Part shown: positions 4,653 to 5,020 of the stretch, piece after piece
Layout of the letters: each line of letters opens with the position of its first letter
How positions within the stretch are numbered: position 1 is the stretch's first letter
Source: a virus
Lineage: Duplodnaviria > Heunggongvirae > Uroviricota > Caudoviricetes
Length of the DNA stretch: 5,399 nt
IMG/VR virus record: IMGVR_UViG_2671180636_000008
Strand: one strand, 5' to 3'
Translations under genes and position numbers: made by a program
The notes under the pieces: model-generated
Told to the model about the DNA's origin: nothing
Seen by the model: only the letters and a program-made list of their open reading frames with translations
Database searches by the model: none

Positions 4653-4805
4653 ATGATTTACACTAATCAGCTTCGTTACAGTGGCAAAGATGGCATCTAT
4701 TTCCACTTAAGAGACAATGTAGATGCCTTCTTAACCTTATCAGCAACTGAAAACATGGAATTTGATAGCCCTATGCAGGTGACTACACAGAACATGCAAT
4801 TATGA
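4653..4805 (+). CDS. hypothetical protein, 50 aa as written; probably the 5' part of a frameshifted larger gene
   Basis: ATG 4653 with strong Shine-Dalgarno AAGGAG (4641-4646, 6-nt spacer); stop TGA 4803-4805. Encodes [50 protein letters not shown]. Confidence 0.5.
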
Positions 4806-5020
4806 AGGAAGCTTATTATTAACTCGTCAGGGTCAATTAGTAGAAAACTTCATTGACACTCTGGAAAACTGGCGTGACCAGAAGCAGATTATTTCTGTTA
4901 TCTGTAAAGATGGAATTAAAATTGACGATTCCATTATTACCAACTTTAAAGCCTCTAAAGATGTTACTATCTCTAACGGTCTTCGTATCCAGCTAACTTT
5001 TCAGGAAATTAACTTTAAAG
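4783..5020 (+). other. open frame (+1 relative to CDS 4653..4805) with no start codon; probable continuation of that gene after a frameshift; runs into masked block 5021-5262
   Basis: This frame opens after TGA 4780-4782 and has at least 79 sense codons with no ATG, GTG or TTG ([79 protein letters not shown]). It overlaps the upstream ORF by 23 nt. Confidence 0.4.

Follow-up and report, generated by a model that had tools for sequence, protein, structure and literature searches.

A 74-nt deletion splits the tube-initiator-like gene behind the tape measure gene of a Shigella sonnei chromosomal island

The window, by which we mean the whole analysed stretch of 5,399 nt from the IMG/VR virus record IMGVR_UViG_2671180636_000008, matches Shigella sonnei sequence: all of its unmasked stretches were compared and were 100% identical to the S. 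sonnei contigs L012 and L013. It contains a tape measure gene, a short spacer and a predicted tail tube initiator gene that is broken into two fragments and runs into an insertion sequence. The following features were located:

2269-4496, plus strand: gene for the tape measure protein (726 aa in the native sequence), with its native start codon hidden by the N-run 2269-2558 and TGA 4494-4496 as stop codon
4592-4635, no strand assigned: perfect 10-bp inverted repeat (TCAAAGGCTT ... AAGCCTTTGA, 24-nt loop), exactly conserved in the island relatives
4641-4646, plus strand: Shine-Dalgarno sequence AAGGAG, 6 nt before ATG 4653; the intact relatives use the same start
4653-4805, plus strand: 5' fragment of the predicted tube-initiator (Dit-like) gene, with homology to the intact relatives over codons 1-49
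4800/4801, no strand assigned: deletion junction; 74 nt (CAGGGCAAAC...GTAGTTGGC, encoding 25 residues) are missing here and present in the relatives
4801-5366, plus strand: 3' fragment of the predicted tube-initiator gene, shifted to +1 with respect to ATG 4653, from YEGSLLL... to ...KKYSV
5367-5399, plus strand: left end of an IS21-family element (ISSso4-like; TGCAAAATGGCATCTGAATCG...); istA and istB follow in L012

Four runs of N interrupt the window, at 529-568, 1726-2083, 2269-2558 and 5021-5262, and all of them exceed the native DNA that they stand for (40 versus 13, 358 versus 292, 290 versus 264 and 242 versus 222 nt). The sequence under the masks was taken from the contigs that are 100% identical elsewhere, the masked bases of the window itself not being visible. 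Because the N-runs do not have the native length, neither a reading frame nor an ORF length can be carried over a mask. An ORF of 789 aa (2127-4496) and another of 351 aa (1136-2191) were discarded as artefacts of reading through N; the native genes behind the N-spanning ORFs, as seen in L012, encode the 726-aa tape measure protein and proteins of 236 aa and 68 aa. The mask length also accounts for a second frame change that the preliminary description had seen between the 3' fragment and the open frame after the mask (5265-5399): with the native 222 nt in place, the +1 frame stays open for 204 codons. A compensating second indel, suggested by the 20 additional nt under the fourth mask, was rejected as well, since the 100%-identical contigs show that all four masks are inflated.

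The upstream gene had been taken for a tape measure gene, which agrees with its matches to Pfam TMP_3 (PF20155), TIGR02675 and PHROG 4036. In L012 the gene occupies 7664-9844 and ends at window position 4496. Its product is 33% identical to the tape measure protein of the Felixounavirus BPS15Q2, with conserved N- and C-termini. A spacer of 156 nt (window 4497-4652) separates it from the tube-initiator gene; it is missing in Felixounavirus, where the two genes abut. The inverted repeat at 4592-4635 within the spacer had no match to simple terminator or promoter consensus sequences and none in Rfam, and neither a promoter and terminator scan of 4400-4900 nor an Rfam scan of the window returned a hit.

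The small ORF downstream of the spacer, previously described with an AAGGAG motif, a 6-nt gap, ATG 4653 and TGA 4803-4805, was recovered base for base. Its product comprises 50 codons (MIYTNQLRY...TTQNMQL); codon 49 is followed by one new Leu codon and the TGA, both made by the deletion. The account of the +1 frame was equally accurate: it is closed by TGA 4780-4782, opens at 4783 and continues for 79 codons to the mask free of stops, ATG, GTG and TTG, the near-cognate codons in this run being ATT, ATC and CTG only. An open run of this length has a probability of about 0.002 at the given base composition, so the inference that both pieces are coding is sound. The further claim, that the two parts are remnants of one gene, was confirmed by the intact homologues, which are single ORFs. 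The 3' fragment has about 189 codons in the native sequence and lacks a start codon of its own; the N-run 5021-5262 inside it stands for 222 native nt. The 204 unbroken codons of the native +1 frame hold all remaining homology up to ...KKYSV, followed by 14 codons of foreign sequence. Translational coupling of the fragments via the ATGA overlap at 4802-4805 was considered and dismissed, as this ATG lies in the third frame, where only 6 codons are open. Reassignment of TGA to a sense codon was dismissed too: frame 0 contains several more stops downstream and shows no homology there.

The function of the gene was approached through an intact relative, which matched the Pfam family Dit_like (PF21821) over residues 30-147 with 73.1 bits against a cutoff of 24.2. 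The intact protein matches PHROG 3721 from end to end, and the conceptually joined fragments of the window match the same family at 2e-67, in two stretches. The gene immediately follows the tape measure gene, which is the place of a gene for a Dit-like protein or tail tube initiator. In the Felixounavirus Bas63, the gene after the tape measure gene encodes gp18, which was identified by cryo-EM as the tube initiator, a hexamer with the fold of the tube protein (PMC12609058). An extension of about 100 residues at the C-terminus of gp18 is present, and the protein adapts the threefold (C3) hub to the sixfold (C6) tube (PMC12609058). By homology and gene order, the intact gene is predicted to encode a tail tube initiator of about 262 aa, a homologue of Bas63 gp18. 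The C-terminal 75 residues or so of the tube initiator occur in at least three distinct variants. Near the N-terminus a stretch of 26 nt is 85% identical to upstream DNA (window 107-132 versus 4683-4708, L012 5574-5599 versus 10031-10056), corresponding to GKDDIYLHL in a small upstream ORF (window 2-229) and GKDGIYFHL in the tube initiator; this resemblance is probably due to chance.

Comparison with relatives revealed the nature of the split. In a BLAST search against phage genomes, window positions 4677-5020 were about 94-95% identical on the nucleotide level to Felixounavirus genomes, with 213 to 256 matching records depending on the search mode; each of the matches listed fell into two pieces, with a span in the record 74 nt longer than in the window. 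Salmonella phage BPS15Q2 has a single ORF of 265 codons (2971-3768) behind its tape measure gene, and in a pairwise alignment with it the window shows a clean gap of 74 nt at 4800/4801. The 74 nt are also present in three IMG/VR contigs with the same spacer and start codon as the window. Copies on E. coli chromosomes were found in 433 of 5426 complete genomes; 300 copies covered at least 80% of the junction-spanning query, and each of the E. coli matches listed was broken in two and spanned 74 nt more than the query. In RefSeq these E. coli copies are annotated as a single CDS for a 'phage baseplate protein'. Inspection of homologues for uninterrupted frames had been proposed as a check, and we extracted eight relatives from phages, IMG/VR contigs and E. 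coli chromosomes: all eight were uninterrupted ORFs of 256-265 codons and all contained the 74 nt, with the 25 encoded residues present where the window lacks them.

Compared with the intact relatives, codons 50-74 are missing, 25 codons in total. The split initially described as a +1 change is real, but the lesion behind it is a deletion of 74 nt and not a shift by a single nucleotide. As 74 equals 3 x 24 + 2, the downstream codons were moved into the +1 frame, exactly as observed. No flanking microhomology was seen at the 4800/4801 break when the window was aligned with the relatives. The 3' fragment differs from the intact relatives by 7-19 synonymous versus 1-3 non-synonymous codon differences, and the +1 segment encodes no amino acid that is absent from them. 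These figures suggest a recent deletion in a young clone. The lack of decay by point mutations in the 3' fragment is expected if the lesion is recent, and it is also expected if the fragment is still under selection.

Searches with the junction alone gave a misleading picture of its distribution. A 30-mer across the junction had no match in IMG/VR or in a collection with one genome per species, a 41-mer of the spacer hairpin had none in the latter collection, and a plasmid search gave no match either; none of the relatives among the matches listed in the phage and E. coli searches has the junction. From these empty searches the deletion seemed private or artefactual, in line with an error of assembly or sequencing by which 74 nt present in the organism were lost, and an indel error of the assembly had been among the readings first considered. 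The species collection gave no match because neither S. sonnei nor these E. coli strains represent their species in it, and an exact-protein look-up overturned the impression: the 50-aa product was found, letter for letter, on at least 1000 contigs from many samples that bear the name Shigella sonnei, and the index of the assembly collection has it in 2281 blocks, under names such as 'Uncharacterised protein [Shigella sonnei]' and FORC11_1046. All ten loci examined (L012-L021), each from a different NCBI assembly and one with the CP accession of a complete genome, had the identical junction. Furthermore, the loss of 74 nt without a flanking repeat is untypical of sequencing errors. The chance of an artefact is negligible. 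The 74-nt deletion is real and fixed in the Shigella sonnei lineage, and its junction is a clean marker of this lineage. The truncated product also occurs with point changes (Y3C, M35T).

The gene after the tape measure gene is thus very probably an ordinary deletion pseudogene. This reading combines uninterrupted homologues with an indel that is not a multiple of three, a reproducible lesion, the loss of part of a domain and the presence of further lesions. The intact ancestor would have encoded a tube initiator of about 262 aa with a Dit-like N-terminal domain and a C-terminal extension of about 100 aa. In the S. sonnei lineage, the 74-nt deletion would have removed codons 50-74 inside the Dit-like domain and shifted everything downstream into the +1 frame. 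Translation from the strong ribosome-binding site and ATG 4653 should then end after 50 codons at the TGA made by the junction, and the approximately 189 native 3' codons, which have no start codon, would not be expected to be translated. Taken together, the lesions suggest a loss of function of the tube-initiator gene. Low-level spontaneous frameshifting or read-through past the deletion is formally conceivable; since the deletion lies inside the Dit-like domain, even a frameshift product would lack part of the core domain.

Additional lesions affect the gene and its surroundings. The IS21-family end stands in place of the stop codon and the six codons before it (NPNKRY) and is fused to codon V of ...KKYSV; it is multicopy in E. 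coli genomes, lies about 200 nt upstream of istA and extends in L012 from 10715 onward. E. coli O177:H21 (L007) has this IS end 272 nt farther downstream, within the recombinase gene, so the fusion of IS21 and gene in S. sonnei may be an IS-adjacent deletion. The 3' fragment is cut by IS21 in all assemblies examined. In eight of the ten S. sonnei assemblies it also carries an IS1 with a 9-bp target duplication (TGGAAGCTG) at window 5262-5270 (L012 10590-10598); this insertion is absent from the window's own type and represents a polymorphic second hit in the same pseudogene. The neighbouring gene for a large serine recombinase is split by IS21- and IS3-family elements. Other truncations of the same gene were observed in the E. 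coli island copies P0003 (...QSGCVLP) and P0009 (...QVDLTQQ), which indicates that the tube-initiator gene was inactivated independently more than once. A disrupted gene in a decaying prophage had been one of the initial readings: the disruption stands, by the deletion and the IS lesions, but the host element is an integrative island of 11-12 kb and not a prophage.

Frame 0 ends with CAA-UUA-UGA, and a programmed +1 (or -2) frameshift at this site, another of the readings first proposed, would join the parts into a protein shortened by 25 residues. Such a shift would have a stop codon in the A-site where frame 0 ends, a strong ribosome-binding site upstream and, downstream, a +1 frame that is open for 204 native codons and encodes conserved protein sequence. 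The arrangement goes back, however, to a 74-nt deletion that is confined to a single clonal lineage; every diverged homologue examined is one uninterrupted ORF, and none conserves the split. The P-site tRNA-Leu on UUA is unable to re-pair on UAU, thus the codon is not prone to shifting. The overlap had been reported to lack slippery heptamers and homopolymer runs, and we likewise found no XXXYYYZ motif and no homopolymer of four or more nucleotides in it; a prfB-type motif, CTTTGA, CCCTGA or similar sequences were not detected in the overlap, nor was an SD-like stimulator upstream in 4780-4799. Folding of 4790-4900 gave no stable downstream RNA structure (z = -1.06; 24 of 200 shuffled sequences folded as well). 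The joined product would moreover lack the core of the Dit-like domain, and its 3' part is cut further, in every assembly examined by IS21 and in eight of ten also by IS1. We therefore rejected the programmed shift, for which a very small probability remains. Recognition of the split gene as a deletion pseudogene removes a false candidate for translational recoding.

The 5' fragment with its perfect ribosome-binding site could yield a 50-aa peptide. This raises the question of a retained and expressed N-terminal protein that, for instance, interferes with the tube-initiator assembly of an infecting Felixounavirus, the 3' part being junk. The intact ribosome-binding site and ATG have been maintained, and the fragment, almost identical to the N-terminus of the phage protein, has become fixed in the lineage. 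A young clonal species, however, can fix such a sequence without selection, non-synonymous variants circulate, and 50 residues of a beta-sandwich would probably not fold; expression and activity of the peptide are only hypothetical. We regard a retained peptide as improbable, and an ordinary pseudogene as the preferred reading of both fragments.

The element that carries the pseudogene is a chromosomal island of 11-12 kb (L010, L011, and L012 at about 600-16380). It was found at different positions: in E. coli GN4751 (NZ_CM177078.1) an island of about 11 kb lies between tonB and yciI, while the site in E. coli E47 and S. sonnei is flanked by ymdF and wrbA. About 8% of the complete E. coli genomes (433/5426) have the island. 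Its constant genes encode a small resolvase, Dam, a 317-aa protein, several small ORFs, the 236-aa and 68-aa proteins, the tape measure protein, the tube initiator and, on the opposite strand, the large serine recombinase, which was recognised by a Pfam match. The 317-aa protein has weak PHROG matches to O-like replication initiators (E = 2e-10). The 236-aa and 68-aa proteins upstream of the tape measure protein showed no similarity to the Felixounavirus chaperones and no match in Pfam, NCBIfam or PHROG. Capsid, terminase and other tail genes are not annotated in the island, and the remainder of the island had no near-identical DNA in any phage record. A search of the island for direct repeats gave short matches only, of a kind expected by chance.

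The relationship to Felixounavirus is sharply mosaic, with the first 150-185 or so codons of the tube initiator about 95% identical on the DNA level and the tape measure 33% identical on the protein level. This mosaicism points to recent recombination between the islands and Felixounavirus phages, and these phages are the obvious candidate for a helper. The satellites of Vibrio cholerae known as PLEs offer a model for such a relationship. The recombinase of PLEs is of the large serine type. With a tape measure protein, tail assembly chaperone and baseplate hub of their own, PLEs form chimeric tails on parts of the phage ICP1 (PMC12987554). The island is likewise a small integrative element with an integrase and a replication-initiator-like protein, and it has its own tape measure protein and a tube initiator related to those of Felixounavirus. 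The islands are apparently an undescribed family, and a tentative, rather doubtful interpretation of their gene content is that they are PLE-like satellites, or elements interfering with tail assembly, of virulent Felixounavirus; the split gene would then be a dead copy, and the identity of about 95% would reflect recent recombination with the helper. Our literature search found no paper linking Felixounavirus to satellites. If this interpretation were true, Felixounavirus phages may have satellites of their own, and the S. sonnei copy would still be non-functional.

The likeness between island and PLE is one of layout and gene content: a size of about 11-12 kb, a large serine recombinase, a replication-initiator-like protein, no capsid or terminase, and an own tape measure gene together with one baseplate-proximal tail gene related to that of a virulent myophage. 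Unlike PLE, the island has no recognisable tail assembly chaperone, its second tail gene encodes a tube initiator instead of a hub protein, and the S. sonnei copy is dead. With the tube initiators of Felixounavirus (Bas63 gp18 and those of FelixO1 and BPS15Q2) the window gene shares the place directly after the tape measure gene, an almost identical N-terminal region of about 150 aa and the match to Pfam Dit_like. It differs from them in the loss of codons 50-74, the shifted frame and the last six codons lost to the IS, in its first eight codons, in the 156-nt spacer before the gene and in its location in a chromosomal island instead of a phage genome. The resemblance to the +1 frameshift of prfB (RF2) is confined to a zero frame that ends at UGA and a downstream part that is open in +1; in contrast to prfB, the window gene has no slip codon of the CUU-U type, no SD-like stimulator and no conserved split, and its frame change is caused by a 74-nt deletion. 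Genome reduction in Shigella sonnei proceeds by IS-driven gene decay and the formation of pseudogenes. The window gene, inactivated by a deletion, with IS21-family, IS1 and IS3-family elements in and around it and with lesions fixed in a clonal lineage, does not differ in kind from this process and adds one more instance to it.
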